Shown one piece after another: positions 2,388-41,641 of a stretch of 64,000 nucleotides of DNA. This DNA is from an uncultured Gammaproteobacteria bacterium. GTDB taxonomy: Bacteria; Patescibacteriota; Microgenomatia; Daviesbacterales; UBA10151. The position numbers were made by a program, and so were the translations under genes. A model generated the notes under the pieces. The model was not told the origin of the DNA. It searched no databases and saw nothing but the letters and a program-made list of their open reading frames with translations. Each line of letters begins with the position of its first letter. Position 1 is the stretch's first letter. The stretch spans positions 50,597 through 114,596 of the forward strand of contig CAYLXC010000001.1 of assembly GCA_964387865.1 (NCBI GenBank), read 5' to 3'.

Positions 2388-2738
2388 CTAATGAGGAAAT
2401 TTTTTGAGGCCCCAGCCTATTACCACAACTGCAGCTGAAAAAAGACCCAATGAAAGGATAGGAAAACCTGTGTTTGGTAAAGTCTGGGCGCTGCCTTGCA
2501 TCCTTTGGGCAATCGTGTTAAATGCTGACTGAGAAGTCGGGGAAGGAGAAACAGTTGCTGTATCCTGCCCCAAAACAGAAGGAGAAGGTGAAAGAGAACC
2601 TTCAACAGATATTTCTTGAGGCTGCGTTTGAGTAGTACTATTTGTAAATAATCTTCCGCTAATTAAAAAATATCCAACAGCAACAGCTGCTAAAATTAAC
2701 CCGATAGTAACAAGCCTAATCCATCTTGGATCATCCAT
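2388..2738 (-). CDS. small Ser/Thr/Pro-rich surface protein with N-terminal signal/TM and C-terminal LPXTG-type sorting signal (LPNTG, hydrophobic stretch, KKFPH)
   Basis: The C-terminus reads ...QTLPNTGFPILSLGLFSAAVVVIGWGLKKFPH, the classical tripartite sortase substrate signal. An N-terminal hydrophobic segment is followed by a low-complexity S/T/P/Q region. Confidence 0.55.
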   Translation of the reverse strand: MDDPRWIRLVTIGLILAAVAVGYFLISGRLFTNSTTQTQPQEISVEGSLSPSPSVLGQDTATVSPSPTSQSAFNTIAQRMQGSAQTLPNTGFPILSLGLFSAAVVVIGWGLKKFPH

Positions 2739-2830: not shown

Positions 2831-4486
2831 ATGGCCAAATTAAATCAAAGAGCTGCTGCCCATATTCTTCTTCTTGTAACAGCAATAGGCATTATTGCAT
2901 TAACTCTGGTTACTAATACATTCTCTTTTAAGGACAAACTATTCTCCCAGCTTTTTCCCAAATCTAAATCATTCGCATCACAATTGTATGAATCTACTCC
3001 TCTAAATGAATTATCCATGTACCCTAAAGCAAGTAATAATATTCAGTTATTTGCCTATTTTGGGGTAAATAAATTCCAACAAAACGTTCCTCAATTCGTC
3101 AAGGATTATCTGGCAAAAGAAATGGACTTTTTTTTATTTGATTTCCAACATGATTACCCCTGCATTGATAGTGGAAATTACGATTTTCCCTGTCCAAACA
3201 ATAATTATAATTTTTCAGGGCTTTGGAATTTAACAAGCGATCTTAAAGCGATTTTACCCAACAAATTAAAAGTTATTATTCATGGCTGCGAAGCATTTGG
3301 GAATCACCCCTGGTGCCCCTCTTTTCCAATACTTACTGATAATGACATTATGCACAACAAAGATAGTTCTATTAAAAGGTATATCTTAGGTTCAAGACTT
3401 TTTAATGTAAATAATCCCACAACCAGAGATAAGATTGCTTTGTATTGGAGAGATACATTTAATACAAAAAATGTAGATGGAGTTGTTTTTGATTCATTTA
3501 ATCCTGATCAGGCAGCCTCACTTGGCAGGGGGTCCTGTTTGGATGATACTTGCGACACCACTATTAATCCTGCGTCATTTATTACTGATCGGGCCGAATT
3601 CCAAAGCTGTTTGGAAGGACCTTGCGAAACTTATGATTTTTGGACAGAAAGGATGGGAGCATTTGGAAGGGAAACTATGAATTCCTCTCCTGGAAGAGAA
3701 GTTATATATAATGGTTTCTCACTGGATCCAAATTCAAAATACGGTCCTTACAACAGTAATTTTACGGATTACTTCACAGGAGCTTTAATTGAATATCCCC
3801 AGGAAATGATATTTAGCCCGGAAAAGTTTAAAAACTACTTGGACGCCATTAATTATATTCTGAACAAAGGCAAAAAATTATTCATTATTTTTCAGCCTCA
3901 GCTATCAAGCATCCCCTCATTAAATATCAATTTGAATTTGGAAAGATTTTTCCTTGCAACTTATCTTCTGCTTCAAAAGAATTCTTATACTTTTTTTAGC
4001 TACCATCCGGGAGAACCATATAGATTGGATTCTTCGGAATGGCTTTATTTTTATAAAGACTGGAATTTGGATTTTGGTACACCTTTAGATTTCTACAGAA
4101 GTGTAAACTCGCCTGATTTATATTACCGCCAATATAGCAATGGCTATGCAGTTGTTAACTCATCAGATTTTTCTGTAAACTTTCCGTTCCCGCCGGGTGA
4201 ATGGCGTGAGTGGGATCCTTATGATAGTTCAAAAGGTGTTAGCGGATCAACAGCAATACCACCTAAAACTGGAAAATTTTTCTTTGAAGCTTCCAAGTTC
4301 CCAACTCCTTCCCCTACTCCCCCACCCAAGATAGGCGATATAAATGGGGATGGGGCTGTAAATGTAGTGGATTTCTCGATTCTATTATCTAAATGGAATA
4401 CAGCAGATATAGGTGCTGATTTAAATGGAGACGGAATAGTTAATGTAGTTGATTTCTCAATCCTTTTATCTAATTGGGGGACATAG
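2831..4486 (+). CDS. secreted/membrane-anchored protein (551 aa) with a C-terminal tandem type-I dockerin module after a Pro/Thr linker; the central domain is possibly glycoside-hydrolase-like
   Basis: N-terminal signal-anchor (MAKLNQRAAAHILLLVTAIGIIALTLV), linker PTPSPTPPPK, and two dockerin repeats GDINGDGAVNVVDFSILLSKW / DLNGDGIVNVVDFSILLSNWGT (DxNxDGxVNxxD calcium-binding pattern). Confidence 0.7.
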   Translation: MAKLNQRAAAHILLLVTAIGIIALTLVTNTFSFKDKLFSQLFPKSKSFASQLYESTPLNELSMYPKASNNIQLFAYFGVNKFQQNVPQFVKDYLAKEMDFFLFDFQHDYPCIDSGNYDFPCPNNNYNFSGLWNLTSDLKAILPNKLKVIIHGCEAFGNHPWCPSFPILTDNDIMHNKDSSIKRYILGSRLFNVNNPTTRDKIALYWRDTFNTKNVDGVVFDSFNPDQAASLGRGSCLDDTCDTTINPASFITDRAEFQSCLEGPCETYDFWTERMGAFGRETMNSSPGREVIYNGFSLDPNSKYGPYNSNFTDYFTGALIEYPQEMIFSPEKFKNYLDAINYILNKGKKLFIIFQPQLSSIPSLNINLNLERFFLATYLLLQKNSYTFFSYHPGEPYRLDSSEWLYFYKDWNLDFGTPLDFYRSVNSPDLYYRQYSNGYAVVNSSDFSVNFPFPPGEWREWDPYDSSKGVSGSTAIPPKTGKFFFEASKFPTPSPTPPPKIGDINGDGAVNVVDFSILLSKWNTADIGADLNGDGIVNVVDFSILLSNWGT

Positions 4487-4528
4487 AAAGTTGACTTTAA
4501 TCCCAACTTAGCTGTTAATTAAACTAGA

Positions 4529-6316
4529 GTGAATAAATTAAATCAGGCAGGTGCTTCTCATATACTCATTCTTGTTGCTGTTGTAGGCTTTCTCTTTTTT
4601 CTACTAATATCCAACGCTTTCGACTTTAAAGATAAACTTTTTAGCAATTTATTCCCTAAACCTCCATCACATGCAGTTTCTCCATATAAAATCGGTGCCT
4701 ATTATTTTGGTATGTGGTCATCTACAGATACTGTACCGGATCATCTGGATAATGTTGAAAGAGTTTATGGAAGACGAGATCTGTGGGGAGGAGTAAAAGA
4801 CTTTTATGGTTTAGAGCCGGGAATCCCAAAAGATACCAGAGGCTGGACCGGAGATTTTTCTCATCTCAAACCGGAAATTGGATACTATGATTACAGTATT
4901 TCTGGTCCTACTATTCTAGAACAACAAATAATTCAGGCTAAACAAAACGGGTTAAGTTTTTTTAATTTTTACTGGTATTGGGATTCCACATATAAAAAAG
5001 AATTTCTTAGCAGTGGAATAAATTCTTTCTTGCAAGCAACCAATAAAAATCAGCTGCAGTTTATGATTTCAATTGCAGCTCATCCTTGGTGTAATGGCCC
5101 TACATGCCTATCAATACCTCTTCAGGATGGAGTGCAAACTACTCAAATTATTGTGGATAAATATTTCTCTCAACCAAATTATCTTAAAACTCAAAATGGA
5201 AGACCGATTATATTTATACTTGACTCACGAGGTATGTATGGAGGAACAATACAAGATACTCAAGACTATATTTCCCTTTTAAAACTAACTTCACAAAACA
5301 GATTAGGTGTTGAACCAATTGTGCTGATTTCCGTTGAAAATCCAGATGCCAGATCAATTACTAATACTGATGGATATTCTTGCGTAGCCACCTATATTCA
5401 ACCTTCTGGAGCACAATCATATCAATATTATCTTGATAATTTTACAAACCATTTTGCAACTTTCACTGATAAACCGCTCATGCCATGTTTTGTGAGTAAC
5501 TTTGATGAACGTCCAAGGCAAGATATATCAATAACAGATAGGAACCAAATACGATATTTTAGTGATTTTTCAGAAACACTTTTTAGGGATGGGGTTACTC
5601 GGGTTAAACAATACATGGATTCCCAAACAAATGAACTTAGTAAGATATTAACAATTTATGCATGGAATGAATGGCATGAAGGTGGAATAATAGAGCCTAA
5701 TGTGAGAGATAAAAATAAAAGGTTAAGCATAATAGCTGAAACATTTAGCTTAACAACAAACCCTATCGGTACTTTTGATCTTGCAAACTGCTCCTTAATA
5801 GAAGGCTGGACCTGTGATGCTGATGATTATAATGCTACGTTGAATGTTCACCTTTACAAGGATGGGCCCTATGGAAGTGGGATATTCATCGCATCAACAT
5901 CTGCAAATATTACAAGGGAGCCAGCTGTTGGAAGTTCTTGTGGAGGAAATCCCAATCATGGATTTTCTTATGTAACACCACCCTCACTAATGGATAGCCA
6001 GCCGCATACAATTTATGCATATGGTATAGATATCCCTTCCGGAACTAATTCCATTCTAAATGGTAATCCTAAAACTATTCAGTGTAATCCCACTCCCTCA
6101 CCTACCCCAACCCCAAGTCCTTCCCCATCTCCTACTCCTACCCCTACTCCACCTCCTAAGACTGGGGATATTAATGGAGATGGATCCGTAAATGTAGTTG
6201 ATTTCTCGATCCTTTTATCTAAATGGAACACATCAGATTCTGCATCTGATCTAAATGGAGATGGGATAGTTAATGTAGTAGATTTTTCTATACTTCTATC
6301 TAACTGGGGGACGTAA
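4529..6316 (+). CDS. paralogous secreted protein (595 aa) with the same N-terminal anchor and C-terminal dockerin module but a different central (putative carbohydrate-active) domain
   Basis: N-terminus MNKLNQAGASHILILVAVVGFLFFLL...DFKDKLFSNLFPK is near-identical in pattern to the upstream gene. Linker PTPSPTPTPSPSPSPTPTPTPPPK. Dockerin repeats GDINGDGSVNVVDFSILLSKW / DLNGDGIVNVVDFSILLSNWGT. The last ~170 nt of each gene are nearly identical at the DNA level. Confidence 0.7.
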   Translation: MNKLNQAGASHILILVAVVGFLFFLLISNAFDFKDKLFSNLFPKPPSHAVSPYKIGAYYFGMWSSTDTVPDHLDNVERVYGRRDLWGGVKDFYGLEPGIPKDTRGWTGDFSHLKPEIGYYDYSISGPTILEQQIIQAKQNGLSFFNFYWYWDSTYKKEFLSSGINSFLQATNKNQLQFMISIAAHPWCNGPTCLSIPLQDGVQTTQIIVDKYFSQPNYLKTQNGRPIIFILDSRGMYGGTIQDTQDYISLLKLTSQNRLGVEPIVLISVENPDARSITNTDGYSCVATYIQPSGAQSYQYYLDNFTNHFATFTDKPLMPCFVSNFDERPRQDISITDRNQIRYFSDFSETLFRDGVTRVKQYMDSQTNELSKILTIYAWNEWHEGGIIEPNVRDKNKRLSIIAETFSLTTNPIGTFDLANCSLIEGWTCDADDYNATLNVHLYKDGPYGSGIFIASTSANITREPAVGSSCGGNPNHGFSYVTPPSLMDSQPHTIYAYGIDIPSGTNSILNGNPKTIQCNPTPSPTPTPSPSPSPTPTPTPPPKTGDINGDGSVNVVDFSILLSKWNTSDSASDLNGDGIVNVVDFSILLSNWGT

Positions 6317-7652
6317 GAAATTTATGTGCTTCCTTAATCCTTTTTATACTTTCCTCCTCGCCTAAAATTTTCATGCATTCAAAAAGCGGTGGGGTTACAA
6401 TCTGGCCTGAGATTGCAACCCTAATTAGTTGAAACATATCAGATGCTGACAAACCTTCTTGACTAGCCAATTCCCTGAAAGTTTTTTCAAACACCTCTGC
6501 TTTCCATGGTTTTTCCATTCTTTCCAGCTCTTCCGCAACTCTTCCAATCTTTAATCTTAAATCTTTAATCCCTGCCTTGCCGGCAGGCAGGTTTAATCTA
6601 TTAAATACCTCTATTTCATATTCCGGCTTTTCCCATAAAAAATCTGTTAATGGCACAAAATCTGATAATTTCTTTATCCTCTCCTTTATTAAAGGTATAA
6701 CTTTTCCAATCTCTTCCTCTGTTGGATGATCCAAGGCTCCCCCTGAAATATTTTTTAAATATTCTAAAATTTGAGATTTAAGATTTGAGTTTTGAGATTT
6801 CCTTATGTATTCCCCATTTAACCACTCAAGTTTTGTTACATCAAAATACGCTGATGAAGCATTCACGTCTTTAAAATCAAAAAGTTTTATCATCTCCTCT
6901 ATTTCAAAAATTTCTTTCCCTTCAGGATGAGTCCAGCCTAAAAGTGCCAAAAAATTAAGTACAGCCTCTTTTAAATACCCATCATCCCTAAACTCTAGTG
7001 TGGATTTTGCCCCATGTCTTTTGGATAACTTAGCTCTGTCAGATCCAACCAAAACAGGCATATGGGCAAATTGCGGATGAATCCACTCAAAAGTATCATA
7101 AATCATCAAATGTTTCGGGGTTGAAGAAATAAACTCATTACCCCGGATTACATGAGTAATTTCCATTAAATGATCATCCACTACATTCGCAAAATTGTAA
7201 GTCGGATACCCGTCTGATTTTAGAATCACAAAATCTTCTTGGGTATTATTAGGAAAACTAATTTTTTTATCTCCTACCAAATCTTGCCAAACAGTTTCCC
7301 CTTCCTTCTTAACCTTAAACCTTATTGCTTTTCCGTCTTTATAAGCAAACCCTTTTTCTAAAAGCTCAAAAGCATATTTTTTATAAATATCCAGTCTTTC
7401 GGATTGAATATAGGGTGCATATGGACCACCGATATCAGGCCCTTCATCATACTCTAAACCTAACCATTTTAAAGTTTGATAAATTTGCTCAACACTTTCC
7501 GCAACAAATCTTTCCCTATCCGTATCCTCAAGCCTTAATATGAATTTCCCTCCCATTTTTTTTGCAAACACAAAATCAAATAGCGCTTGCCAGGCTGTTC
7601 CAATATGTGGTGCGCCTGTTGGGGATGGCGCAAGTCTAACCCTAACTTCCAT
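6300..7652 (-). CDS. gltX: glutamate--tRNA ligase
   Basis: Class I aaRS signatures: PSPTGAPHIG (HIGH) and KLSKR (KMSKS). Typical GluRS N-terminal catalytic-domain organisation. 450 aa. The 3' end overlaps the convergent dockerin gene by 17 nt. Confidence 0.9.
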   Translation of the reverse strand: MEVRVRLAPSPTGAPHIGTAWQALFDFVFAKKMGGKFILRLEDTDRERFVAESVEQIYQTLKWLGLEYDEGPDIGGPYAPYIQSERLDIYKKYAFELLEKGFAYKDGKAIRFKVKKEGETVWQDLVGDKKISFPNNTQEDFVILKSDGYPTYNFANVVDDHLMEITHVIRGNEFISSTPKHLMIYDTFEWIHPQFAHMPVLVGSDRAKLSKRHGAKSTLEFRDDGYLKEAVLNFLALLGWTHPEGKEIFEIEEMIKLFDFKDVNASSAYFDVTKLEWLNGEYIRKSQNSNLKSQILEYLKNISGGALDHPTEEEIGKVIPLIKERIKKLSDFVPLTDFLWEKPEYEIEVFNRLNLPAGKAGIKDLRLKIGRVAEELERMEKPWKAEVFEKTFRELASQEGLSASDMFQLIRVAISGQIVTPPLFECMKILGEEESIKRIKEAHKFLTSPS

Positions 7653-22210: not shown

Positions 22211-23401
22211 TTAGAATTCAACCTTGGATCCCTCCGGGACAGTTTGGATCCAGACTTGTCCTTTGTTAAATTCTATTTCTTGATTTCTAGAATCAACAAA
22301 CTTTGTTCTTACAGTTCTTGATGATTTATTCCACTTACCTTCTATTACATTTCCATCTTGGAAAATTAAAGCTTTCCCTACTCCTTTTGTACCATAAAGA
22401 AGATGTAAATTATTTGGATAACCATCATTTGCATTTGATTCTCTCATAAATTGTACAATGATATTTTTAGCCATTAGTTGCTCCTTATTATTTAGATCTA
22501 TATGATCCTCCCCATTTTTTCTTTTATAAGAACTAGACATTGGATCATACGTCCACTGAACCTGGTAATCCGGCTGAGACTCCCAGAAATTGACTTTAAT
22601 TTGAGTTACTTGCCCCGAGCTTACCGATTGGGTCGAAGGATCCTTAAACTTCCAAGGAACAAAGTTCTCATCCCATCTTACTCCATCTGAATCAGTTGCT
22701 ATCCATCCCCTTTTTGCTCCAACTTCCCAAAGCTTTTGTGTTGTTGAATACATTGTATGTTCTGTTGCAACAGAATGTCCTAACCTTTGATAATCTCTCC
22801 AAAATACAGGAAAACCAATAGAAAATTGATTCAAATCTTTTACTCCATATCTTATAATTTGGCCTAAAGCATCCGCAGGTCCAGGTGTATTTGCTCCACC
22901 AACATGAGCATAAAGTGCATCATATTCCCCTAACCAATCCAAATAATAAGTTCTTGCAGAGCGAACTGGCCCAACTTGAACATCTGATAAATGACAATAG
23001 AAAATTGCCATAAAGCGGGTGATCCCACCCTCTGCAACAGCCTCATAAATAATATCTGCAGAAGATAAACCAGATTGCGGTCTTGCTTCTTTGTGATTCT
23101 CAATCATAATAGCCAAAGGACGTCTTTTCTCCCAAAATTCTTTGGCCTTTTTTGTATGCATCCGTCCATTAAGAGGACAACTTTCTGTCCTTGGCTCGTT
23201 TGGATCTTCTGCTAAAGCACCTTCTGGAGTAGGAACAGAGGATTTTGATTCCTCCTCACTTGGCAGAGTCTTCACAAATTTACTAAACAGTGTATAGGAA
23301 ACAGATGATGATGCAGCATAAAAAACTACTGCCAAAATTATTAAAACTAAAATCTTTTGTAAATTAGTTAATCCTTGAAACGTCTCAGTAACTTTATCCA
23401 T
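22211..23401 (-). CDS. membrane-anchored/secreted hypothetical protein (396 aa; DUF3048-like by memory)
   Basis: N-terminal TM followed by a large extracytoplasmic domain. No catalytic motifs recognised. Confidence 0.5.
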   Translation of the reverse strand: MDKVTETFQGLTNLQKILVLIILAVVFYAASSSVSYTLFSKFVKTLPSEEESKSSVPTPEGALAEDPNEPRTESCPLNGRMHTKKAKEFWEKRRPLAIMIENHKEARPQSGLSSADIIYEAVAEGGITRFMAIFYCHLSDVQVGPVRSARTYYLDWLGEYDALYAHVGGANTPGPADALGQIIRYGVKDLNQFSIGFPVFWRDYQRLGHSVATEHTMYSTTQKLWEVGAKRGWIATDSDGVRWDENFVPWKFKDPSTQSVSSGQVTQIKVNFWESQPDYQVQWTYDPMSSSYKRKNGEDHIDLNNKEQLMAKNIIVQFMRESNANDGYPNNLHLLYGTKGVGKALIFQDGNVIEGKWNKSSRTVRTKFVDSRNQEIEFNKGQVWIQTVPEGSKVEF

Positions 23402-23867
23402 TTTGTAAAGCCCTCCTTACTATTGTCTCCTCTTCTTCAGAAAACTGATATTTGCTTGCTCTCCCCTCACTTACCGGTTTTGCAAAAATTCTTGTGCCAG
23501 ATCTTGCGTGTAAACTGGTCAAAACAATTCCTGATCCTTCTTCATCAAGCAAAGCCAAAGTAAAACTCTGATCCCCGCCTGTATCATCATATGGGTTATA
23601 ACGCAAGAGTTCTATTCTTTGAATATAACTCATTCCCTTTTTCTCAAAATTATTCAATTTCTTTTTAAATTCATCCGAGCCTAACTTAAATTCTTCAATC
23701 TGATTTAAAACTTCCTCAAACTTTTGCCTTATATCTCTTTCTCCTGATTTTGGAAAAAGAGATTTTAAGAAATTATTTTGCCTCCCAACCAAATAACTTA
23801 AAACCAAAAGCCAAATAAAAACTGTCGCAACTGCCCCTGCGGCAAAGACGGACCAATCCGAATACAT
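23394..23867 (-). CDS. membrane-anchored hypothetical protein (157 aa; DUF4446-like by memory)
   Basis: N-terminal TM and coiled-coil. First gene of the operon leading to secDF. Confidence 0.5.
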   Translation of the reverse strand: MYSDWSVFAAGAVATVFIWLLVLSYLVGRQNNFLKSLFPKSGERDIRQKFEEVLNQIEEFKLGSDEFKKKLNNFEKKGMSYIQRIELLRYNPYDDTGGDQSFTLALLDEEGSGIVLTSLHARSGTRIFAKPVSEGRASKYQFSEEEETIVRRALQNG

Positions 23868-24621: not shown

Positions 24622-26151
24622 TTATAACTCTTCTCTTGCTCGATATTGTAATGCCTCTGCCACATGTTCTGTCTGAATATTTACCTCACCTGCTAAATCC
24701 GCAATAGTTCTTGCAAGTTTCAAAACCTTATGATATCCCCTTGCAGAAAGATTAAGGGAGGAGATTGCCATTTTCAAAAGATTTAATCCCTCTTGATCCA
24801 AATTACAATACTCTTTTATGTCACTATTGCTCATTTCAGAATTACTTATTATTCTTCCCTTGAATCTTCTCAGCTGGATTTTGCGAGCAGCGATAACCCT
24901 GTCCCTTATAGTTTTTGAATCTTCAAATTTCAAATCCGAAGATAATTTATCCACCTCAACTGCTGGTACTTCCAAATAAATATCAATCCTATCCAAGAGT
25001 GGGCCGGAAACTCTCCTTTTATACTTTGCAATTTGACCCGGCATACAAGAACAAATCCTTTTACGATCACCCAAAAATCCGCAAGGACAGGGGTTTTGTG
25101 CAGCAAAAAGCATAAATTGAGCTGGAAAAGTTAAAGAACCTGAAGCTCTTGAGACCGTTATTTTATGATCTTCTAAAGGCTGTCTTAAAGATTCCAAAAC
25201 ATGCCTTGGGAACTCCGGCAACTCGTCCAAAAACAATACCCCTCTGTGTGATAAAGAAATTTCCCCGGGCTTTATATTATTTCCTCCACCCAAAAGCCCA
25301 ACAGCTGAAGCACTGTGATGTGGTGACCTAAAAGGACGAGTTGTAATTAATGAAGATTTCCCATCCAAAAGCCCTGCAACAGAATAAATCTTTGTTATTT
25401 CCAAGGCTTCTTCAAAACTAAGTGGAGGCAAAATTGATGGAAAAGCTCTTGCAAGCATTGTTTTCCCAGCACCTGGTGGACCTTTCAATAAAATATTGTG
25501 TCCTCCTGCTGCAGCAATTTCTAAAGATCTTTTTGCCTGTTCCTGACCTTTTATTTGAGAAAAATCATAATCATATACCCCCTCACCATCCAGCTTTATA
25601 TTTGTTTTCTTAACAGATTTTAAATCTTTTTGCCCCAATAAATATTTGATTAAATCCTGTAAAGATTCAACTGAAAAAACATTCAAATTCTTAACAACAC
25701 TTGCCTCGGATGCATTATCTTTTGGAACAATGACCCCTTTTAATTTTTTCTCTTTTGCCAAAATTGCCAAAGGTAAAATACCATGAGTTCTTCTTAAAGC
25801 ACCGTCCAATGATAATTCCCCGACAAAAAGATAATTTTTCAAATCTTCAATTTTGTCAGTAGGGATTTGTCCGCTGGCAATAAGTAACCCCAAAGCAATT
25901 GGCAAATCATAAGATGGACCTTCCTTAGGCAGATCAGCAGGTGCCAAATTTACAGTAATTTTTCTGGAAGGAAATTCTGCCCCGCAATTTCTTATTGCGG
26001 ATCTAACTCTATCTTTGCTCTCTTCAACAGCCCTATCTGCCAAACCAACAATTGTAAAAGAAGGAAGGGATTGAGAGGAAATATCCACTTCAACAGTGAT
26101 AGGAACTGCATCCAACCCAATATTTGCCCCGGATAGTATTTTTGCAAGCAT
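24622..26151 (-). CDS. comM: YifB/ComM family Mg-chelatase-like AAA+ ATPase
   Basis: N-terminal ChlI-like domain, Walker A GPPGAGKT, and C-terminal Mg-chelatase C domain. 509 aa. Confidence 0.85.
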   Translation of the reverse strand: MLAKILSGANIGLDAVPITVEVDISSQSLPSFTIVGLADRAVEESKDRVRSAIRNCGAEFPSRKITVNLAPADLPKEGPSYDLPIALGLLIASGQIPTDKIEDLKNYLFVGELSLDGALRRTHGILPLAILAKEKKLKGVIVPKDNASEASVVKNLNVFSVESLQDLIKYLLGQKDLKSVKKTNIKLDGEGVYDYDFSQIKGQEQAKRSLEIAAAGGHNILLKGPPGAGKTMLARAFPSILPPLSFEEALEITKIYSVAGLLDGKSSLITTRPFRSPHHSASAVGLLGGGNNIKPGEISLSHRGVLFLDELPEFPRHVLESLRQPLEDHKITVSRASGSLTFPAQFMLFAAQNPCPCGFLGDRKRICSCMPGQIAKYKRRVSGPLLDRIDIYLEVPAVEVDKLSSDLKFEDSKTIRDRVIAARKIQLRRFKGRIISNSEMSNSDIKEYCNLDQEGLNLLKMAISSLNLSARGYHKVLKLARTIADLAGEVNIQTEHVAEALQYRAREEL

Positions 26152-26192
26152 CAGAAAAGGCAGGAATTTTTGGGGCAGAAATATTTTTTGTG

Positions 26193-26494
26193 CCTAGGAA
26201 GATAGTAAGCCAGATTCTGTTTCAAGATGATAATTTATCTAATGCTCCTGATTTCGAAAATCGAGCGAGCAGCTCTTTCGGTTCTAGGATTGCAGCGGGG
26301 AGGATTGCCCGTTTCACTCCCACACCAGATGGTGCGGGATTCGTCACTGTTGCTCTAACTAGTGATTACTCATGCCGATTTACATCGACCACCCTGCTCT
26401 ACGCTGTCTGGACTTTCCTCCACGTTCATGTAAACTACGTTCGTGTAAACCGAATCGTAGTAAACTGAACGTGGTAATCATCCTTCTTCCTAGG
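26193..26494 (-). ncRNA. rnpB: RNase P RNA (bacterial type, reduced)
   Basis: The minus strand contains the P4 signature GGAGGAAAGTCC...AGGGTGG and the 3' P4 strand ACAGAATCTGGCTTAC. P1 is closed by 'cctaggaaga'/'tcttcctagg'. It lies in a 360-nt gene-free gap. The overlapping plus-strand ORF 26124-26468 is spurious. Confidence 0.75.
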
Positions 26495-29147: not shown

Positions 29148-30383
29148 TTACATTGTATAAAGATGAAACTTATTTATAGTGATTGTTCCCCAAAAATTTA
29201 TAATAATGCTTAAAATTAATAATATATAAGCAATTTTTGAAGGCTTTTTACCTAAACCAATGGCCACTAAGATTAATAAAAATGGCATGAAATCCTGGGC
29301 AAAACGATAACCAAATTGAGAAAAACCAACGCCAGCCCATTGGATCACTACTAATAGAGCAGATATTATCGCCAAAGTACAACTAATCATCAAAAGAGAT
29401 TTTTTTGCTTTAAAAATATAAATTAGTAGAGGACTTGTAAACCAAATAGCAGTAGCATACAAGGAAGGAATAAAGTAAGGAGCTTGCTCACTTAGTTTAG
29501 GTACTCTAAAAAAAAGTGCATCAATATGGCGAGGAATATAGCTTATACTCATGTAAACTCCATTAACTACTGTGTTTGTATCAACATTTTGAATTAAATT
29601 ATAAGGCGCTAATGGACTGAAATTTCCAAATCTTAAAAAATTATAAAAAGCATCTATTAAAATAAAAAATGCTACACCAAAACTTAACTTAATAAAGTCA
29701 ACAATTTTTTCCTTACTAATCGGCCAAAATTTTTCATATAAATAGAGGTGGAAGAAAGGGATGGTAAATAAAACTGAAGTCCTTGCCCAAAATGAAGCCC
29801 CCAAAAGTAATCCAACTAAAATTAATCTTTTTTTTGTACAAGTTTCAATTAATGCTGAAAGCAAAAAGAATAAAGCAACAATATGCGCCAAATACCAGGA
29901 TGAACCAACGCTTGAAAGAAAGTAATGATTTGTGCCGAATGCAAAAAATACCGCCATAAAAACTGCTAGATGTTGAGAAAAATTTAACTTTTTAATTAAC
30001 AAATAAACTAATACCACATTAATACTACCTAAAGTTATAGAGAATACAGTTTCGGAAAAGAACTCACCAAAGATATAAACAAAAGGTGTCATAATAATTG
30101 CAGGCATTGGAGGAAGCGCAACGAAATACTTCCCATCAACAGGAATTAGTTCATTTAACCAGGATGGACTCTCGCTTGTATATAATTTAAAATGGATAAA
30201 ACCTTCAGAAAGTCGTGTAAAATAATCGTATGGGGTTTCACCAGGAGAAGATAAAAAATATATAAAGCAAGTTATGACAAATAAAAAAATAGCAGTTTTA
30301 ATTTCTTTATTAACTAACATAAAATTTCTGCTTCTAGTCGGTTTGATTTTCCGCCTTGTTTTTTCAATTCTACCAGGATTCAA
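29148..30383 (-). CDS. polytopic membrane protein, putative GT-C-fold glycosyltransferase (start probably ATG at 30320)
   Basis: About 10 TM segments. It overlaps the divergent gene at its 5' end. The table start is TTG; an internal ATG (MLVNKEIK) is more plausible. Confidence 0.5.
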   Translation of the reverse strand: MNPGRIEKTRRKIKPTRSRNFMLVNKEIKTAIFLFVITCFIYFLSSPGETPYDYFTRLSEGFIHFKLYTSESPSWLNELIPVDGKYFVALPPMPAIIMTPFVYIFGEFFSETVFSITLGSINVVLVYLLIKKLNFSQHLAVFMAVFFAFGTNHYFLSSVGSSWYLAHIVALFFLLSALIETCTKKRLILVGLLLGASFWARTSVLFTIPFFHLYLYEKFWPISKEKIVDFIKLSFGVAFFILIDAFYNFLRFGNFSPLAPYNLIQNVDTNTVVNGVYMSISYIPRHIDALFFRVPKLSEQAPYFIPSLYATAIWFTSPLLIYIFKAKKSLLMISCTLAIISALLVVIQWAGVGFSQFGYRFAQDFMPFLLILVAIGLGKKPSKIAYILLILSIIINFWGTITINKFHLYTM

Positions 30384-31512
30384 AATTGATGTCGATGCAT
30401 GGTTTGCTTGGGCGCAAAGATTGAATCAGGTAGGGTTACAAAACTTTTACTCTGATCAAATTTGGACAAATTATACTCCTGGATATTTATATATTTTATA
30501 TTTTTTGGGTTGGGTTAAGAATTTGTTTAATATAAATGATGCTCAATTTTATTTTATATTAAAATTGCCCTCGATTCTTGCAGAAATAATATTAGGGTTA
30601 TTTATATATAAGATAATTAGTAAAAAATCCTACATTTGGGCAAAGGTTGCTACAGCATCAGTTTTGTTAAACCCTGTCTTTATTTTTAACAGTGCAATTT
30701 GGGGACAAATAGATGGATTTTTTAGTTTGATACTCCTTTTAACGATTTATTTTTTAGTCGAAAAAGAATTAATTTTATCTTCTATATCATTTGGGTTGGC
30801 ATTCTTAATAAAACCTCAGGCAATTGCAATAATACCTATCTTGATTCTTTTCCTTATTAAAAATTTCAGTTATAAAAATGTTTTAAAATTAGTTTTCCCA
30901 ATCATTTTAGTTATATTCATTTTGCCATCACCCTTTTTTATAGATCAACCTTTCACAGGAATTATTCAACTATTTTCTAAGATGTTATCCGATTATTCCT
31001 ACATTTCTCTTTTTGCCTATAATTTTTGGGGGGGGATAGGGTTTTGGGTTCTCGACGATAAATATTGGAATAATTTATCTTACCAAAATTGGGGATACAT
31101 TTTATTCGTGATATATTGGTCCATCATTACATATTTCTATTTTAAAAAGAAGTTATCACTCTTTTCTTTAGCAGCTCTTGCTACTTTAAGTTTTTATTTT
31201 TTACCAACCCGTATCCACGAAAGATACTTATATCCTGCTATTGTTTTCTTAATAATTTATTCTTTTTCAATTAAATCCAAACTGCTAATAATACTAACAA
31301 CCGTTTTATCAATTATTCATTTCTTAAATCTTTACTATGTTTATGTTTATTACAATGAATTTTATCTAAAATTACCAAAAACACTCTATATTCCAATCTT
31401 GTATAATTTCTTAGATACAAACGGAAAACTTTTGTCTATTGTTTCCACAGCTCTTTTTGTTTTAATAAGCATTAGTATAATAAAATCACAAAATGAAAAT
31501 AAAAAATCTTAG
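30274..31512 (+). CDS. polytopic membrane protein, putative GT-C-fold glycosyltransferase (PIG-V/DUF2029-like pattern)
   Basis: Multiple TM segments with conserved periplasmic-loop aromatic/acidic residues (IDVDAWFAWAQRL). Confidence 0.5.
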   Translation: MTNKKIAVLISLLTNIKFLLLVGLIFRLVFSILPGFKIDVDAWFAWAQRLNQVGLQNFYSDQIWTNYTPGYLYILYFLGWVKNLFNINDAQFYFILKLPSILAEIILGLFIYKIISKKSYIWAKVATASVLLNPVFIFNSAIWGQIDGFFSLILLLTIYFLVEKELILSSISFGLAFLIKPQAIAIIPILILFLIKNFSYKNVLKLVFPIILVIFILPSPFFIDQPFTGIIQLFSKMLSDYSYISLFAYNFWGGIGFWVLDDKYWNNLSYQNWGYILFVIYWSIITYFYFKKKLSLFSLAALATLSFYFLPTRIHERYLYPAIVFLIIYSFSIKSKLLIILTTVLSIIHFLNLYYVYVYYNEFYLKLPKTLYIPILYNFLDTNGKLLSIVSTALFVLISISIIKSQNENKKS

Positions 31513-32707
31513 CCCGAAAAAAATATTAATTCTAATTTTACTGCTGACAACATTTTTACGACTATTCCGTTTGGATTTTCCAAATAAATATATTTTTGAT
31601 GAGGTTTACCACGCATTTACTGCCAAAGAATATTTAGCCTGGCATAAAGAGGCTTGGGAATGGTGGACAACACCTCCTCCTGGAGTTGCTTATGAATGGA
31701 CCCACCCTCCTTTAGCAAAAGAAATCATGGCAATTTCTATGTTTACTCTGCATTCCCAAGATGGATGGGCATGGCGTTTACCTGGAGCATTACTTGGAGT
31801 TTTATCAGTTTATATAGTTTATCTTTTGGGTATTAAATTGCTAAATAACCAACTAGCAGCATTAATTGCGGCATTTGTATTTTCCATAGATGGATTAAAT
31901 TTTGTCCAATCAAGAACTGGCATGAATGATATTTATTTTGTCACCTTCATGCTATGTAGTTTACTACTTTTGCTAAATAAAAAGTTTCTACTTTCTTCTA
32001 TTTTTCTAGGACTTGCCATATCAGGCAAGTGGGCCGCAGTCTACACCTATTTAATAATAGTACCGCTTATACTTTTGTATCATAAGTATTTGCAGATTTT
32101 ATATTTTATTGCAGTTCCTATTATCGTTTACTTAATAATCTACATCCCATTTTTCCTACAAGGACACGGTTTAGAACAATTTATCCATCTTCAACAGCAA
32201 ATGTGGTGGTATCATACAAATTTGAAAGCAACTCATGGATATTCTTCACCTTGGTGGTCATGGCCTCTAAATTTATATCCTGTTTGGTATTTTGTAGATT
32301 ACCAAAAAAATAACATTGCCAATATTTTTGCATCCGGTAATCCTGTTATTTTTTGGTTAGGATTCGTATCAATTGCCTTAACTTCTTGGGAAGCAGTTAA
32401 GAAAAGATCAAAAAATTTGATGATCATTCTCTTAGGATTTTTTATTTTCTGGTTACCCTGGGCAATTTCTCCCAGGATCATGTTTTTATATCATTATTCC
32501 CCATCTGTCCCTTTTATGTGTTTGAGCTTAGGATATTTATTAAGTTCTATTCTTAAAGATAGAGAACGTCAAAAATTCTTAATTATTCTGCTTACTTTGT
32601 GTATACTTTCCTTTATTTTAATTTATCCATTTTTAACAGCCATTCCAATTCCTAGAGAAATGGTTAAAATTTTCTTTTCAACAAACCTAGGTAAAAATCC
32701 TTTTTAA
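31493..32707 (+). CDS. GT39-family (PMT-like) phospholipid-carrier-dependent glycosyltransferase
   Basis: N-terminal loop motif FDEVYHAFTAKEYLAWH (DE motif of PMT/GT39) and a multi-TM body. Confidence 0.7.
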   Translation: MKIKNLSPKKILILILLLTTFLRLFRLDFPNKYIFDEVYHAFTAKEYLAWHKEAWEWWTTPPPGVAYEWTHPPLAKEIMAISMFTLHSQDGWAWRLPGALLGVLSVYIVYLLGIKLLNNQLAALIAAFVFSIDGLNFVQSRTGMNDIYFVTFMLCSLLLLLNKKFLLSSIFLGLAISGKWAAVYTYLIIVPLILLYHKYLQILYFIAVPIIVYLIIYIPFFLQGHGLEQFIHLQQQMWWYHTNLKATHGYSSPWWSWPLNLYPVWYFVDYQKNNIANIFASGNPVIFWLGFVSIALTSWEAVKKRSKNLMIILLGFFIFWLPWAISPRIMFLYHYSPSVPFMCLSLGYLLSSILKDRERQKFLIILLTLCILSFILIYPFLTAIPIPREMVKIFFSTNLGKNPF

Positions 32708-36157: not shown

Positions 36158-37294
36158 ATGAAACTATTCTCCTGGGCAATTGTGCAAATTTTTATTTTAG
36201 TCTTTCTCCAATTTTTGATTAGCAACATCAAACTTCTTGGTAAACCTCCTAGCGGAGATTTTGCTTATTTTTATAATACGGGCCAAAGAGTATTAATAGG
36301 ACAAAATCCTTATATAAGAGAGGGTGAACCATTTTTAAGAAATCCTCCACCTGCCTTATTGATTTATTCCCTATTGCCGTTGGTTCCTATTAAGATCAGT
36401 CAGATTACTTTTTTTGCTATTTCCTTTATGGCATTTTTTATTGGATCATATTTCCTTTTTAATGCTATTGGCTACAGACCAGGCTGGACACATTGGCTAA
36501 TTTATTTTATAGCAGTTTTGATTTTTTTCCCTTTTAGGTATACACTTGGTTCAGGACACATTAATAATTTATTATTTTTGTTTATTGTGCTAACTTTTTA
36601 CTTTCTTAAACGAAAGAATGAAATTGCCTCAGGATTTTTTCTGGCAACTGCAATATTATTATCTGTCACTCCTCTATTTTTAGCAGTTATTTTATTTTTA
36701 CAAAAAAAGTTCAAAATCCTTCTTTGGACTATTTTAAGTTTAATTACTGTATCTTTTGTAACTCTTTTAAGATTTGGGTTCGAAATATTCAAGAATTATC
36801 TCTCTGCTTCAACCTCATATTTAGATTTTGGTATATCCGCATATTATAATCAATCGCTAGCTGCTTTATTTACCAGAATTTTTAATGATCCAGGACTTAC
36901 ACAAAGTATTATATTTATTATTTTGATATGTTCTTTATTATATTTCTTCTACTTAATATTTAAGACCAAAGACAATACAGATCAAGGTATAATCATTTGG
37001 AATATTGGTGTAATTTATTTAATTATATTTGCTCCATTTGCGTGGCAATATCATTTTGTAATAACTATTTTCCCACTACTTACAACTTCTTATTTGATCT
37101 TAAAAACTAAGCAAGGTTTCATATTTTTATTCATTGTTGCGCTTTCTTATTCTTTGATCGGTTACAATATCAAACATCCGCAAATATTTGATAAACTAAA
37201 TATTATTGGACAAATTATTCTATCTCACGTTTTGATAGGTACTTTTATCTTGCTTATATTAAATTTTTATCTTTTAAGAAAAGTTAAAATTTAA
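36158..37294 (+). CDS. polytopic membrane protein, GT87/DUF2029-like glycosyltransferase
   Basis: N-terminal GDFAYFYNTGQRVLIGQNPY resembles the DUF2029 start motif. There are 10+ TM segments. Confidence 0.5.
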   Translation: MKLFSWAIVQIFILVFLQFLISNIKLLGKPPSGDFAYFYNTGQRVLIGQNPYIREGEPFLRNPPPALLIYSLLPLVPIKISQITFFAISFMAFFIGSYFLFNAIGYRPGWTHWLIYFIAVLIFFPFRYTLGSGHINNLLFLFIVLTFYFLKRKNEIASGFFLATAILLSVTPLFLAVILFLQKKFKILLWTILSLITVSFVTLLRFGFEIFKNYLSASTSYLDFGISAYYNQSLAALFTRIFNDPGLTQSIIFIILICSLLYFFYLIFKTKDNTDQGIIIWNIGVIYLIIFAPFAWQYHFVITIFPLLTTSYLILKTKQGFIFLFIVALSYSLIGYNIKHPQIFDKLNIIGQIILSHVLIGTFILLILNFYLLRKVKI

Positions 37295-39845: not shown

Positions 39846-40913
39846 TTATGCCGCTTCTTCGACTACGCCTGCACCTTCTTCTTGGGGTCCAACTACAATT
39901 TTATCCCCTCCGTTACTCTTTTTTCCCCAGGCTTCCCTGATTTCCTTTTCCAATTTTTCAGCTTCTTTTTTATTTTCTTTAAGATAGGCACTGGCAGCCC
40001 CTCTTCCTTGACCCAATAACTTTTCACCCCATTTTATAAATGCTCCTGATTTAGTTAAAATCCCAAGTTCAATACCTACATCCAAAAGTTCACCTTCGTG
40101 AGATACTCCATTTTCATTCATATCAAATTCTGCAATCCTGAATGGAGGAGCAACTTTATTTTTTACAACCTTAACTCTGTGTCTTGATCCAACAACCATA
40201 TCCCCGTCTTTAATATTTTCAATTCTTCTAATATCAAGTCTTATTGAAGTATAAAACTTTAGAGCCAGACCACCAGGAGTTGTTTCCGGATTTCCAAACA
40301 TAACTCCAATTTTTTGTCGAAGTTGGTTGGTAAAAATTACTATGGTATTAGTATTGGAAATAGCCGCAGTTAATTTGCGTAAAGCTTGAGACATAAGTCT
40401 TGCTTGCATCCCCATAACTGCATCACCCATCTCGCCCTCCAACTCTGCGCGAGGTACCAGTGCGGCAACAGAATCAATTACCAAAACATCAATACCTCCC
40501 GAGCGAATCAACGTTTCTGCAATTTCTAAAGCCTGCTCACCGGTATCCGGTTGAGAAATCAAAAGATCATCCAAATTTACCCCGATTTTTTGAGCCCTTT
40601 GAGGATCCAAAGCATGTTCAGCATCTATAAATGCCGCAACCCCATCTTTTTTTTGTGCCTCAGCTATAACATGAAGACAGATAGTAGTTTTTCCAGATGC
40701 CTCAGGGCCAAAAACTTCAATAATCCTTCCTTTTGGCAAGCCGCCAACACCTAATGCAAGATCTAAAGCAATGGAACCTGTGGGGATAACTTGTGTGGTT
40801 AACTTTTCAACTCTTTCTCCAAGCCTCATTATTGCACCCATGCCATATTGTTTTTGAATTTGAGCCAAAGCGGCAGAAATAGCCAATTTTTTTGCTTCAC
40901 CATCTTGTGCCAT
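39846..40913 (-). CDS. recA: recombinase RecA
   Basis: GPEASGKTT Walker A, loops L1 and L2. 355 aa. Confidence 0.95.
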
Positions 40914-40985: not shown

Positions 40986-41501
40986 CTAAATTAATGGTAT
41001 GGGGTAGAGAGGAGGTATCCTCAATTTAATCTTTCTCAGCTCGTCATACCTTTGATGCTCGCCTGCTAATCCAAAATATTCAATAAATTTGTTTCCTATC
41101 TTAAAATCTGCTGTATAAATACCTTCAGGATATAAAACAGCTCTTTCATGCTCAATTTCTTTTTCAAATAAATAATCATCAATTATCTTTTCAGCTATAG
41201 AGTCACAAATGTGACCATCAGTCGCCAAACATTTATCAGCAAACATAATCGGATTGGGTTTATAACCTGCTGCTCTTACCGCATTATTCCAGTTACCAAA
41301 CCGATTTCTGGCAGCATGATAATGGTTGAATTCTCTTTTAAGAGGAATTCGTCCGTGTTCAGCATAGAACTTTTTAATCTGATCAAGAATTTCCTTTTCA
41401 TTTATGGATTGATGTTCTGACCTACACTTTACTGAGCAATAAATTCTGTAGTTAAAAATTCTCTTACCACAGAAAGAACAAATGATCCAACTCTTTGCCA
41501 T
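40986..41501 (-). CDS. zinc-ribbon + HNH-repeat (homing-endonuclease-associated repeat) protein with C-terminal nuclease-like region
   Basis: N-terminal CSFCGK...CSVKC, the repeat signature GRIPLKREF...ARNRFGNWNNAVRAAGY, and a C-terminal D/E/K-rich segment (YTADFKIGNKFIEYFG). Confidence 0.45.
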   Translation of the reverse strand: MAKSWIICSFCGKRIFNYRIYCSVKCRSEHQSINEKEILDQIKKFYAEHGRIPLKREFNHYHAARNRFGNWNNAVRAAGYKPNPIMFADKCLATDGHICDSIAEKIIDDYLFEKEIEHERAVLYPEGIYTADFKIGNKFIEYFGLAGEHQRYDELRKIKLRIPPLYPIPLI

Positions 41502-41569
41502 ATCGCCACGATACCCAAACTAAACCCAAATGTCAATAGAAAAACAAATCCTCAAATGAAAACCTATAG

Positions 41570-41641
41570 TCGGAGATAAGGGAATTGGACCCTTTGCCTC
41601 TCGGACCCCATCCGAGCGTTCTACCGATGAACTAATCTCCG
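41570..41641 (-). tRNA. tRNA-Pro (anticodon GGG)
   Basis: Minus-strand read CGGAGAU-UA-GUUC/AUCGGUA/GAAC-G-CUCGG/AUGGGGU/CCGAG-AGGCA-AAGGG/UCCAAUU/CCCUU-AUCUCCG-A. All four stems pair and the anticodon is GGG. Confidence 0.8.

Follow-up and report, generated by a model that had tools for sequence, protein, structure and literature searches.

Two adjacent genes of a Candidatus Daviesbacteria genome encode glycosidase-like proteins with a shared export leader and compact dockerins

In cellulosomes, dockerins vary with the species-specific cohesin. Among the glycosidases closest to those considered here, the characterised members of family GH99 are endo-α-mannosidases or mannanases, and we know of no member of its WbsX-type branch with a defined substrate. 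Family GH168, formerly GHL15 (Pfam PF14885), has to our knowledge been known so far only from marine degraders of sulfated fucans. Dockerins of a non-cellulosomal kind have also been described: dockerin-like modules were treated by Peer et al. 2009, as cited in PMC10066038, where non-cellulosomal dockerins are discussed as proposed adhesins of other ultra-small bacteria. The dockerin-domain envelope protein SEML1_0315 is essential in Southlakia epibionticum, the one genetically tractable member of the candidate phyla radiation (PMC10633639). In a Microgenomates genome, that of Ca. Shapirobacterales, genes with cohesin and dockerin domains were reported to be expressed, and a cellulosome was claimed (PMC9123182). 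Dockerin and cohesin annotations have already been published for this bacterial group. We describe here two further dockerin genes from it, A and B.

The genes lie in a 64-kb stretch of DNA, which we call the window. Every named best match of its RecA belongs to Candidatus Daviesbacteria (84–89% identity), which assigns the genome to that groundwater lineage of the candidate phyla radiation; an earlier note on this DNA had supposed a reduced, likely episymbiotic lineage. Genes A (551 residues) and B (595 residues) are separated by 42 nt on the plus strand, and the ORF list confirms their position exactly as it had been stated. The features of the locus are as follows.

2388–2738, minus strand: divergent 116-residue ORF, membership in the locus uncertain (translation, motif scan)
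2831–4486, plus strand: gene A, with N-terminal export/anchor module, GH168/GHL15-like barrel, β-sandwich, Pro/Thr linker and dockerin (ORF list, AlphaFold)
2831–2977, plus strand: N-terminal module of A, residues 1–49 (14-module alignment, AlphaFold model)
3026–4075, plus strand: GH168/GHL15-like (β/α)8 barrel of A, residues ~66–415
3491–3493, plus strand: putative nucleophile D221 of A
3524–3640, plus strand: Cys-rich insertion of A, residues 232–270 (C..C ... C...C, GC.EGPC-type motif; gap in the profile-to-PDB alignment)
3710–3712, plus strand: N294 of A
3791–3793, plus strand: putative acid/base E321 of A
4082–4291, plus strand: C-terminal β-sandwich subdomain of A, residues 418–487 (model strands 430–486)
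4301–4327, plus strand: Pro/Thr linker of A, PTPSPTPPP (translation)
4328–4483, plus strand: compact dockerin of A, residues 500–551 (PF00404, dockerin_GC, motif scan, model)
4337–4372 and 4418–4453, plus strand: Ca-binding loops D503–D514 and D530–D541 of A, each followed by a helix FSILLS.W
4529–6316, plus strand: gene B, GTG start, with N-terminal module, GH99-like/WbsX barrel, β-sandwich, Pro/Thr linker and dockerin (ORF list, AlphaFold)
4529–4675, plus strand: N-terminal module of B, residues 1–49
4682–5743, plus strand: GH99-like barrel of B (Pfam Glyco_tran_WbsX), residues ~52–405
5669–5671 and 5678–5680, plus strand: E381 and E384 of the NEWHEG motif of B
5756–6085, plus strand: β-sandwich domain of B, residues 410–519 (model strands 417–519)
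6086–6157, plus strand: Pro/Thr/Ser linker of B, 24 residues (translation; model pLDDT below 50 at 527–539)
6158–6313, plus strand: compact dockerin of B, residues 544–595 (PF00404)
6167–6202 and 6248–6283, plus strand: Ca-binding loops of B
6300–7652, minus strand: glutamyl-tRNA synthetase gene (gltX), convergent with B

The last of these carries the tRNA-synt_1c and Anticodon_2 families, as fits a Glu-tRNA synthetase, and overlaps the final 17 nt of B, just as had been described. A protein identical to A is present in NCBI, ENA and Logan assemblies, and AlphaFold models both proteins well (pLDDT 84.9 and pTM 0.78 for A; pLDDT 87.7 for B). At the DNA level the two genes share a direct repeat of 203 nt (4290–4492 versus 6120–6322) at 79% identity, far above chance. 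Their final 170 nt are 80.6% identical, somewhat less than the ~85% claimed previously. The description of A and B as tandem paralogues is right for the terminal modules and fails for the cores, which share no sequence-profile similarity; hhalign pairs the dockerins only. The central domains are indeed unrelated, as had been said, and belong to two different (β/α)8 glycosidase families, both of them folds of carbohydrate-active enzymes. Their reported richness in aromatic residues is real but mild, with Trp at 1.8% versus 1.2% and Tyr at 4.9–5.3% versus 3.4% in A and B relative to the long ORFs of the window.

Taken by itself, A finds no Pfam glycosidase at E ≤ 0.1. Among 35 relatives, 21 match GHL15 (PF14885), with a best E of 3e-18, and the family profile matches GH168 sequences in the PDB at E 1.3e-22, so that the guess of a GHL-type domain proved a good one for this protein. 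The model has the GH168 architecture, a (β/α)8 barrel followed by a β-sandwich. The catalytic pair of GH168 is D152/E228 in Rho5174 and D206/E264 in Fun168A (PMC11685898). In a sequence-profile alignment, rather than a superposition of structures, D221 and E321 of A align with the Rho5174 motifs DG.F.D and EH that hold this pair. D221 is kept in 34 of the 35 relatives and E321 in all 35. A resembles the GH168 endo-α-1,3-L-fucanases (Fun168A/D, Rho5174, PbFucA) in its aligned Asp nucleophile, Glu acid/base and YNG asparagine. It differs from them in an identity of only 15–17% to the solved enzymes, in falling below the Pfam threshold, in coming from a groundwater rather than a marine host, and in the Cys-rich insertion of ~39 residues. 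This insertion is specific to the subfamily and missing from the solved GH168 enzymes; it contains a 24-nt direct repeat (3535–3558 versus 3607–3630) and is modeled with low confidence at residues 238–256. Only ~20 close relatives (E ≤ 1e-30) were found among 1.8 billion representatives. We infer that A is a divergent endo-glycanase of the GH168/GHL15 type, which would extend GH168 to a groundwater lineage.

The core of B scores above threshold for both families of the GH99/WbsX group, with 69 bits for PF14307 (threshold 25.1) and 36.2 bits for PF16317 (threshold 33). It has the GH99 fold together with both catalytic glutamates of EWHE, and NEWHEG is invariant or nearly so among 120 homologues. 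The NCBI label of the homologues is 'glycoside hydrolase family 99-like'. With this motif and these scores B resembles the GH99 endo-α-1,2-mannosidases and mannanases as well as the WbsX family, and it differs from the solved GH99 enzymes in sequence (15–16% identity) and from most of its homologues in carrying a dockerin where they have DUF5648 repeats. The β-sandwich that follows the barrel has no Pfam match up to E 10 and recurs at the N terminus of one homologue (P0086). Because the top Pfam match bears the name 'Glycosyltransferase WbsX', and because the window also encodes membrane glycosyltransferases of the PMT/GT39 and GT87 types, B might instead be a transferase that modifies a polysaccharide or glycoprotein on the surface of its own cell, with no hydrolase activity. 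We regard this as very unlikely: both the fold and the motif belong to retaining GH99 hydrolases, the NCBI name of the homologues points the same way, and the domain is predicted to be extracellular, where nucleotide-sugar donors would be lacking. A GH99-like enzyme, presumably a hydrolase, is the assignment that we retain.

At their N termini, A and B begin with related modules that are less alike than the near-identical anchor previously described, with 27 of 48 residues (56%) and, in the DNA, ~60% of the first 135 nt identical. In A, a short basic, Asn/Gln-containing segment leads into a hydrophobic helix ~20 residues long; then come FKDKLFSQLFPK, a conserved juxtamembrane motif, and an S-x-A site at residues 47–49. 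In the AlphaFold model a single helix spans residues 6–41. The consensus after the hydrophobic helix is FKDKLFS.LFPK..S.A. Across 14 aligned modules G20, L41, K44 and A49 are invariant, and Q6, F33, P43 and S47 nearly so. The S-x-A site stands ~20 residues beyond the long hydrophobic helix, a placement atypical of a cleaved Sec signal. Directly ahead of that helix, Q6 is followed at +2 by Gly in 11 of the 14 modules, and some relatives begin with pilin-like leaders such as MYKNQKGF.., MHLNQKGF.. and MSQKGF... If the module were a class III signal like that of certain archaeal sugar-binding proteins, a prepilin peptidase would cut after Q-x-G, and by the remaining helix the enzymes would become part of a pilus-like fibre or membrane-anchored array. 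Such a prepilin-like signal seems to us improbable. None of the 14 modules has the Glu at +5 that is typical of bacterial type IV pilins, A has Ala rather than the Gly of B at the putative −1 position, the window has neither a pilin motif nor a prepilin peptidase, and the strictly conserved S-x-A better suits signal peptidase I.

The C-terminal modules are dockerins. With PF00404 (Dockerin_1), whose gathering threshold is 22.9 bits, A reaches 26.9 bits (E 5.7e-6, residues 502–545) and B 32.2 bits (E 1.3e-7, residues 546–589), so that the repeats of both proteins pass the HMM check that the earlier note had proposed, and its reading of both C termini as a Pro/Thr linker with tandem dockerin repeats stands. 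Its designation 'type I' is not established, PF00404 being a general model and the module a compact form of 52 residues. With the NCBIfam model dockerin_GC, A reaches 29.3 bits (cut-off 29), and B, at 27.6, lies slightly under. The dockerins have two tandem segments, which match each other at 18 of 23 residues, and each segment has a 12-residue Ca-binding loop, with Asp or Asn at positions 1, 3, 5, 9 and 12, plus a helix; A shows this in DINGDGAVNVVD and DLNGDGIVNVVD, and B in their equivalents. Both loops in each protein fit the pattern D.N.DG..N..D, and a six-frame motif scan of the 64 kb found four dockerin-type loops, all inside A and B. The model helices span residues 512–520 and 539–547 in A and 556–564 and 583–591 in B. 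The two dockerins are 88% identical, with a dN of 0.063 and a dS of 1.17, values that indicate old copies under strong purifying selection. Near-identity of the protein over such an age is what a common ligand would lead one to expect.

Neither end of the proteins is a private trait of the pair. The leader heads at least 24 different proteins, and the compact dockerin stands at the C terminus of many other exported proteins, enzymes as well as binding proteins (among them GH5, GH16, CBM6, CBM35, β-helix and S8 protease proteins). The two are independent, lineage-wide cassettes, and in related groundwater bacteria each recurs on many exported proteins that are otherwise unrelated. The SILLS.WG helices are conserved across a large and diverse set of 6709 representative proteins (E ≤ 1e-3, counting matches to any part of A). 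Since cellulosomal dockerins vary from species to species, such broad conservation points to a common non-cohesin ligand or to a purely structural role.

The window had been said to hold no obvious cohesin, and we likewise detected none (PF00963) by Pfam and other scans of the window and its flanks, ~76 kb of the genome in all, nor beside the homologues of A and B. These ~76 kb contain no scaffoldin either. The divergent ORF upstream of A is too short for a cohesin and matches nothing in Pfam or NCBIfam. It looks like a sortase substrate, since it starts with a hydrophobic helix, has a stretch rich in Ser, Thr and Gln, and carries LPNTG followed by a hydrophobic tail and KK; a motif scan found the sortase TLxTC motif in no plausible gene of the window. 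The dockerins may be non-cellulosomal, Ca-stabilised tags on enzymes that are free or held by their N termini rather than docked; the tag would then bind a glycan or cell-wall component, act as an adhesin to another cell, or merely stabilise the C terminus. This we consider possible but doubtful. Besides the lack of any cohesin in the inspected DNA, it is favoured by the conservation of the helix in thousands of compositionally varied proteins, by the adhesin role discussed for other ultra-small bacteria (PMC10066038) and by the conserved N-terminal helix, which alone could keep the protein on the cell. The strong purifying selection speaks for a functional module while saying nothing of its ligand, the ~76 kb are only a portion of the genome, and cohesin-domain genes are reported from another Microgenomates genome (PMC9123182). 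We know of no dockerin that binds carbohydrate directly.

Another rival is a true cellulosome-like complex, in which A, B and further dockerin enzymes would be gathered, for the degradation of plant polymers, on a multi-cohesin scaffold whose gene lies elsewhere. The dockerin HMM matches, the cellulosomal dockerins that are the closest PDB sequences to both modules, the related dockerins on GH5, GH16 and CBM6/35 proteins and the claim published for Shapirobacterales (PMC9123182) are all consistent with it. We nevertheless give it little credence: A and B fall outside the cellulase and hemicellulase families, just two dockerin genes occur in 64 kb, scaffoldin and cohesin are missing from the inspected ~76 kb, and alignment gaps show that the two repeats of the compact dockerin are joined without the longer segment that separates those of cellulosomal type I modules.

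The reading that we judge probable is that A and B are exported, modular, glycan-cleaving enzymes whose dockerins dock both to one receptor at the cell surface. The genes are probably co-transcribed. The 49-residue leader would carry each protein across the membrane by the Sec pathway and then either hold it as an N-terminal anchor or be cleaved after Ala49. Outside, the retaining-type (β/α)8 glycosidase domain with its β-sandwich would cut a glycan, most likely an extracellular or host-surface polysaccharide. The flexible Pro/Thr linker would join this enzymatic part to the dockerin, whose two intact Ca loops most likely provide Ca-dependent docking to a common receptor encoded elsewhere, which could be of the cohesin type or some other surface protein, so that the enzymes would stay at the cell surface. 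Such surface display is plausible; a role in host attachment or the degradation of host polysaccharides, as the earlier note proposed, is an inference from what is generally known of the bacterial group.

A bolder version, which we think unlikely, makes the leader and the dockerin the two ends of an undescribed Microgenomates surface-display pathway, and has A represent a branch of GH168 that is not marine and acts on a new substrate. The leader, prepilin-like or an extended signal, could send diverse enzymes to a specific envelope structure, where the dockerin could plug into a receptor other than a cohesin, for example a pilus, an S-layer or a sortase-anchored stalk. If true, this would be a glycan-cutting interface of ultra-small cells on hosts or biofilm polymers. 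In any case, the locus bears on how bacteria of the candidate phyla radiation contact their hosts and obtain sugars. The leader common to many exoproteins of the lineage may serve as a sorting signal and would merit closer definition. A and B offer two concrete, well-modeled enzymes whose catalytic residues are predicted and whose docking tag is defined, all of which can be expressed and tested.

Compared with cellulosomal dockerins of the Clostridium thermocellum type (type I, PF00404), those of A and B share the C-terminal position after a Pro/Thr linker, the two tandem segments of a 12-residue EF-hand-like Ca loop and a helix, a score above the Pfam threshold and, as in cellulosomal dockerins with a dual binding mode, the near-identity of the two segments. 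They differ in their 52-residue length with a very short connection between the repeats, in helix residues conserved over many lineages rather than species-specific, and in their setting, a candidate phyla radiation host with non-cellulase catalytic partners and neither cohesin nor scaffoldin in ~76 kb. By the descriptions available for the modules of Peer et al. 2009, SEML1_0315 and the Shapirobacterales proteins, non-cellulosomal dockerins resemble those of A and B in belonging to secreted or envelope proteins of organisms that make no classical cellulosome, and in the function proposed for them, which is adhesion or the targeting of glycans. Two of these cases, SEML1_0315 (PMC10633639) and Ca. 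Shapirobacterales (PMC9123182), come from the same bacterial supergroup. A and B differ from all of them in joining their dockerins to two identifiable glycosidase families and to a conserved, lineage-specific N-terminal module.

The two co-oriented open reading frames, A and B, are separated by 42 nt, and the ORF list places both exactly where an earlier note on this DNA had read them:

2831-4486, + strand: A, 551 aa, ATG start
4529-6316, + strand: B, 595 aa, GTG start

The 3' ends of the two genes form a 203-nt direct repeat of 79% identity and their 5' ends a 57-nt repeat of 72% identity, as detected with a repeat finder. Over the last 170 nt we measured 80.6% DNA identity against the claimed value of about 85%, and the first 49 residues, which had been described as a near-identical anchor, are 56% identical. 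With the ORFs, the dockerin matches and the end repeats all in place, the observation stands, and these two details were overstated. At its 3' end, B overlaps a convergent ORF (6300-7652) by its final 17 nt, and this ORF carries class I Glu/Gln-tRNA synthetase families, in agreement with the proposed overlap with gltX. Promoter and terminator scans were uninformative, giving counts equal to those of shuffled sequence. An ORF antisense to the dockerin of A (4219-4506, - strand) is a shadow ORF and probably spurious.

A and B are best read as exported glycosidases of the retaining type, drawn from two families, that probably stay on the surface and bear the same calcium-dependent docking tag. 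The core of B matches the Pfam families Glyco_tran_WbsX (69 bits) and Glyco_hydro_99 (36.2 bits, threshold 33), and its hundreds of homologues carry the NCBI name 'GH99-like domain-containing protein'. In most of them, DUF5648 repeats occupy the place of the dockerin of B. In a profile alignment, the YAWNEWHEGG motif of B aligns to SFNEWHEG of a Bacteroides GH99 enzyme (4acy), with E381 and E384 falling on 4acy residues 329 and 332, which we take to be the catalytic glutamates of GH99. Across 120 homologues of B, N380, W382 and E384 are invariant. The beta-sandwich of B (aa 410-519), between the barrel and the linker, has no Pfam or NCBIfam match.

On its own, A has no Pfam match outside the dockerin. 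A word-indexed search returned just two relatives; HMMER, run exhaustively against 1.8 billion representatives, returned about 20 close ones (E<=1e-30) together with more distant ones, and 21 of the 35 aligned relatives match Pfam GHL15 (PF14885). An AlphaFold model of A computed from the alignment of relatives (pLDDT 84.9, pTM 0.78) contains the following elements:

aa 6-41: N-terminal helix
core: (beta/alpha)8 barrel
about aa 420-486: beta-sandwich
linker: disordered
dockerin: two short helices

In GH168 enzymes the catalytic nucleophile is an Asp and the acid/base a Glu; the pair is D206/E264 in Fun168A and D152/E228 in Rho5174 (PMC11685898; PMC12534559). Profile alignment places this pair, found in the motifs DG.F.D and EH, on D221 and E321 of A, and the asparagine of the GH168 YNG motif on N294. 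All three are well conserved among the relatives of A (D221 in 34/35, E321 in 35/35 and N294 in 30/35). A, like B, would act as a hydrolase. Unlike the solved GH168 enzymes, A and its close relatives contain a Cys-rich insertion (aa 232-270; 3524-3640). Within this insertion, a 24-nt direct repeat (3535-3558 versus 3607-3630) encodes two C-x-x-x-C-like motifs. As A shares just 15-17% identity with the characterised GH168 enzymes and comes from a groundwater host whereas these are marine, the marine GH168 substrate is not transferable to it. A relationship between the cores of A and B is rejected at the sequence level. In profile-profile comparison of the two families, hhalign aligns the dockerin only, so the central domains, which the earlier note had called unrelated, belong to different families that have only the TIM-barrel fold in common.

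Both C-termini exceed the Dockerin_1 gathering score of 22.9 in the HMM search (A, 26.9 bits; B, 32.2 bits), confirming the dockerin repeats read from the sequence. Generic EF-hand repeats are rejected because Dockerin_1 is the sole above-threshold C-terminal family in A and B; EF-hand models match some multi-repeat relatives only. A six-frame motif scan found four dockerin-type calcium loops in the 64 kb, all within A and B. The module comprises 52 residues in two 23-residue segments that are identical to each other at 18 of 23 positions, and in each of them FSILLS.W comes directly after a complete D.N.DG..N..D loop. The NCBIfam 'GC-type dockerin' model scores at threshold, and the literature collection searched contained no paper on this type, nor on Daviesbacteria together with dockerin. 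Between A and B the dockerin is 88% identical in protein sequence, with a dN of 0.063 against a dS of 1.17, indicating old copies held near constant by selection. Because a dS of 1.17 is saturated, we reject the idea that the 3' ends underwent gene conversion recently. Very similar dockerins, up to about 70% identical, terminate many proteins in the representative library, and a Pfam census of 62 proteins with a similar dockerin recovered GH5, GH16, CBM6, CBM35, beta-helix, F5/8-type-C, S8 protease and other exported payloads.

If the dockerin acts as a docking tag, it would require a partner. The absence of an obvious cohesin from the window had been pointed out before, and we likewise found no cohesin family match for those of its ORFs that lack an obvious housekeeping role, none in the flanks (precomputed Pfam lists) and none around two homologues (P0002 and P0005). 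A sortase motif was not found in the window, and the neighbouring 347-aa and 342-aa proteins have no Pfam or NCBIfam match. Divergently adjoining A, a 116-aa ORF (2388-2738, - strand) encodes an N-terminal hydrophobic helix and a Ser/Thr/Gln-rich stretch, then LPNTG, a hydrophobic tail and KK; from its sequence it looks like a sortase substrate, and it is too short for a cohesin. The main rival to a docking tag is a dockerin that serves as an adhesin or structural tag with no cohesin partner, and both the absence of cohesin from the inspected DNA and the conservation of the dockerin helix residues across lineages speak for it. In another Microgenomates genome, cohesin- and dockerin-domain genes are reported to be expressed (PMC9123182), and in Southlakia a dockerin-domain envelope protein is reported to be essential (PMC10633639). 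A classical cellulosome is unlikely because the catalytic families of A and B are not plant-cell-wall hydrolases and there are just two dockerin genes in 64 kb.

A and B would be exported by means of a conserved 49-residue N-terminal module, which occurs at these loci:

2831-2977 and 4529-4675: modules heading A and B in the window
L003, 5989-9570, and L004, 5974-6972: loci on two further contigs
L012-L021: further loci

Used as the sole query, the module gave two loci in reference genomes and ten in metagenomes from groundwater, a Hainich aquifer assembly among them (12 further proteins). The module (NQ.G, a hydrophobic helix, then FKDKLFS.LFPK..S.A) stands at the start of many otherwise unrelated proteins, dockerin-bearing or not, that related groundwater bacteria export; they include a 1193-aa repeat protein and a subtilase-like protein. 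In 14 aligned copies, with the consensus M..NQ.G..H.L.LVA..G.IAF.LI...ASFKD.LFS.LFPKP.S.A, residues G20, L41, K44 and A49 are invariant and Q6, F33, P43 and S47 nearly so. To our knowledge, the module has not been described; it could serve as a sorting or processing signal specific to the lineage. Judged by sequence, the conserved S-x-A at positions 47-49 fits cleavage by signal peptidase I. The Q-x-G ahead of the helix is reminiscent of a prepilin leader, but no Glu occupies position +5 and the Gly is replaced by Ala in A. Only one of the five complete further proteins with the module (L018) ends in a dockerin, so functional coupling of the two is not supported. This makes leader and dockerin independent cassettes that occur together on some of the lineage's exported proteins. 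In a DUF4446 protein (23394-23867, - strand), the N-terminal hydrophobic helix is immediately followed by FLKSLFPKS, which is similar to the juxtamembrane motif FKDKLFSQLFPKS in A and B, possibly by chance.

The Pro/Thr linkers of A and B would make typical O-mannosylation targets. The window also encodes a polytopic membrane glycosyltransferase cluster (29148-32707 and 36158-37294) with PMT/GT39 protein O-mannosyltransferase-like and GT87-like members, beside which we note the mannosidase-type fold of B.

The RecA protein (39846-40913, - strand) is 84-89% identical to its matches, and all of those bearing an organism name are Candidatus Daviesbacteria or labelled 'Patescibacteria group', which places the genome in Microgenomates, within the candidate phyla radiation. 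Identical proteins are present on a 116,723-bp NCBI contig, in ENA assembly ERZ27284378 and in run SRR8863434, and the reference genomes scanned do not include this genome. The records of L003 and L004 (CAZFYQ010000017.1 and CAZJNI010000014.1) are titled 'uncultured Gammaproteobacteria bacterium'; these titles look wrong, since the gene content and N-terminal module are typical of Microgenomates. Adjoining recA and a tRNA-Pro (41569-41641) is a 171-aa Cys-rich ORF (40986-41501, - strand) with a homing-endonuclease-associated repeat (PF18780). A probably spurious ORF (26124-26468, + strand) overlaps an RNase P RNA of bacterial class A (26190-26493, - strand, 117 bits). On the part of the ENA contig that lies upstream of the window (L005, 3620-6087), transketolase is encoded in two pieces, an N-terminal and a C-terminal gene, which are separated by two small ORFs of 103 and 92 aa, both unannotated.

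Beyond routine annotation, A represents a GH168-like clade that is divergent, non-marine and distinguished by its Cys-rich insertion, B a GH99-like enzyme with a dockerin in place of DUF5648 repeats, and both carry a conserved lineage-specific export leader. Dockerin-tagged glycosidases and non-cellulosomal dockerins are already known, also in the candidate phyla radiation group. The dockerin of A and B differs from cellulosomal dockerins in that, by alignment gaps, the connection between its segments is 6-9 residues shorter.
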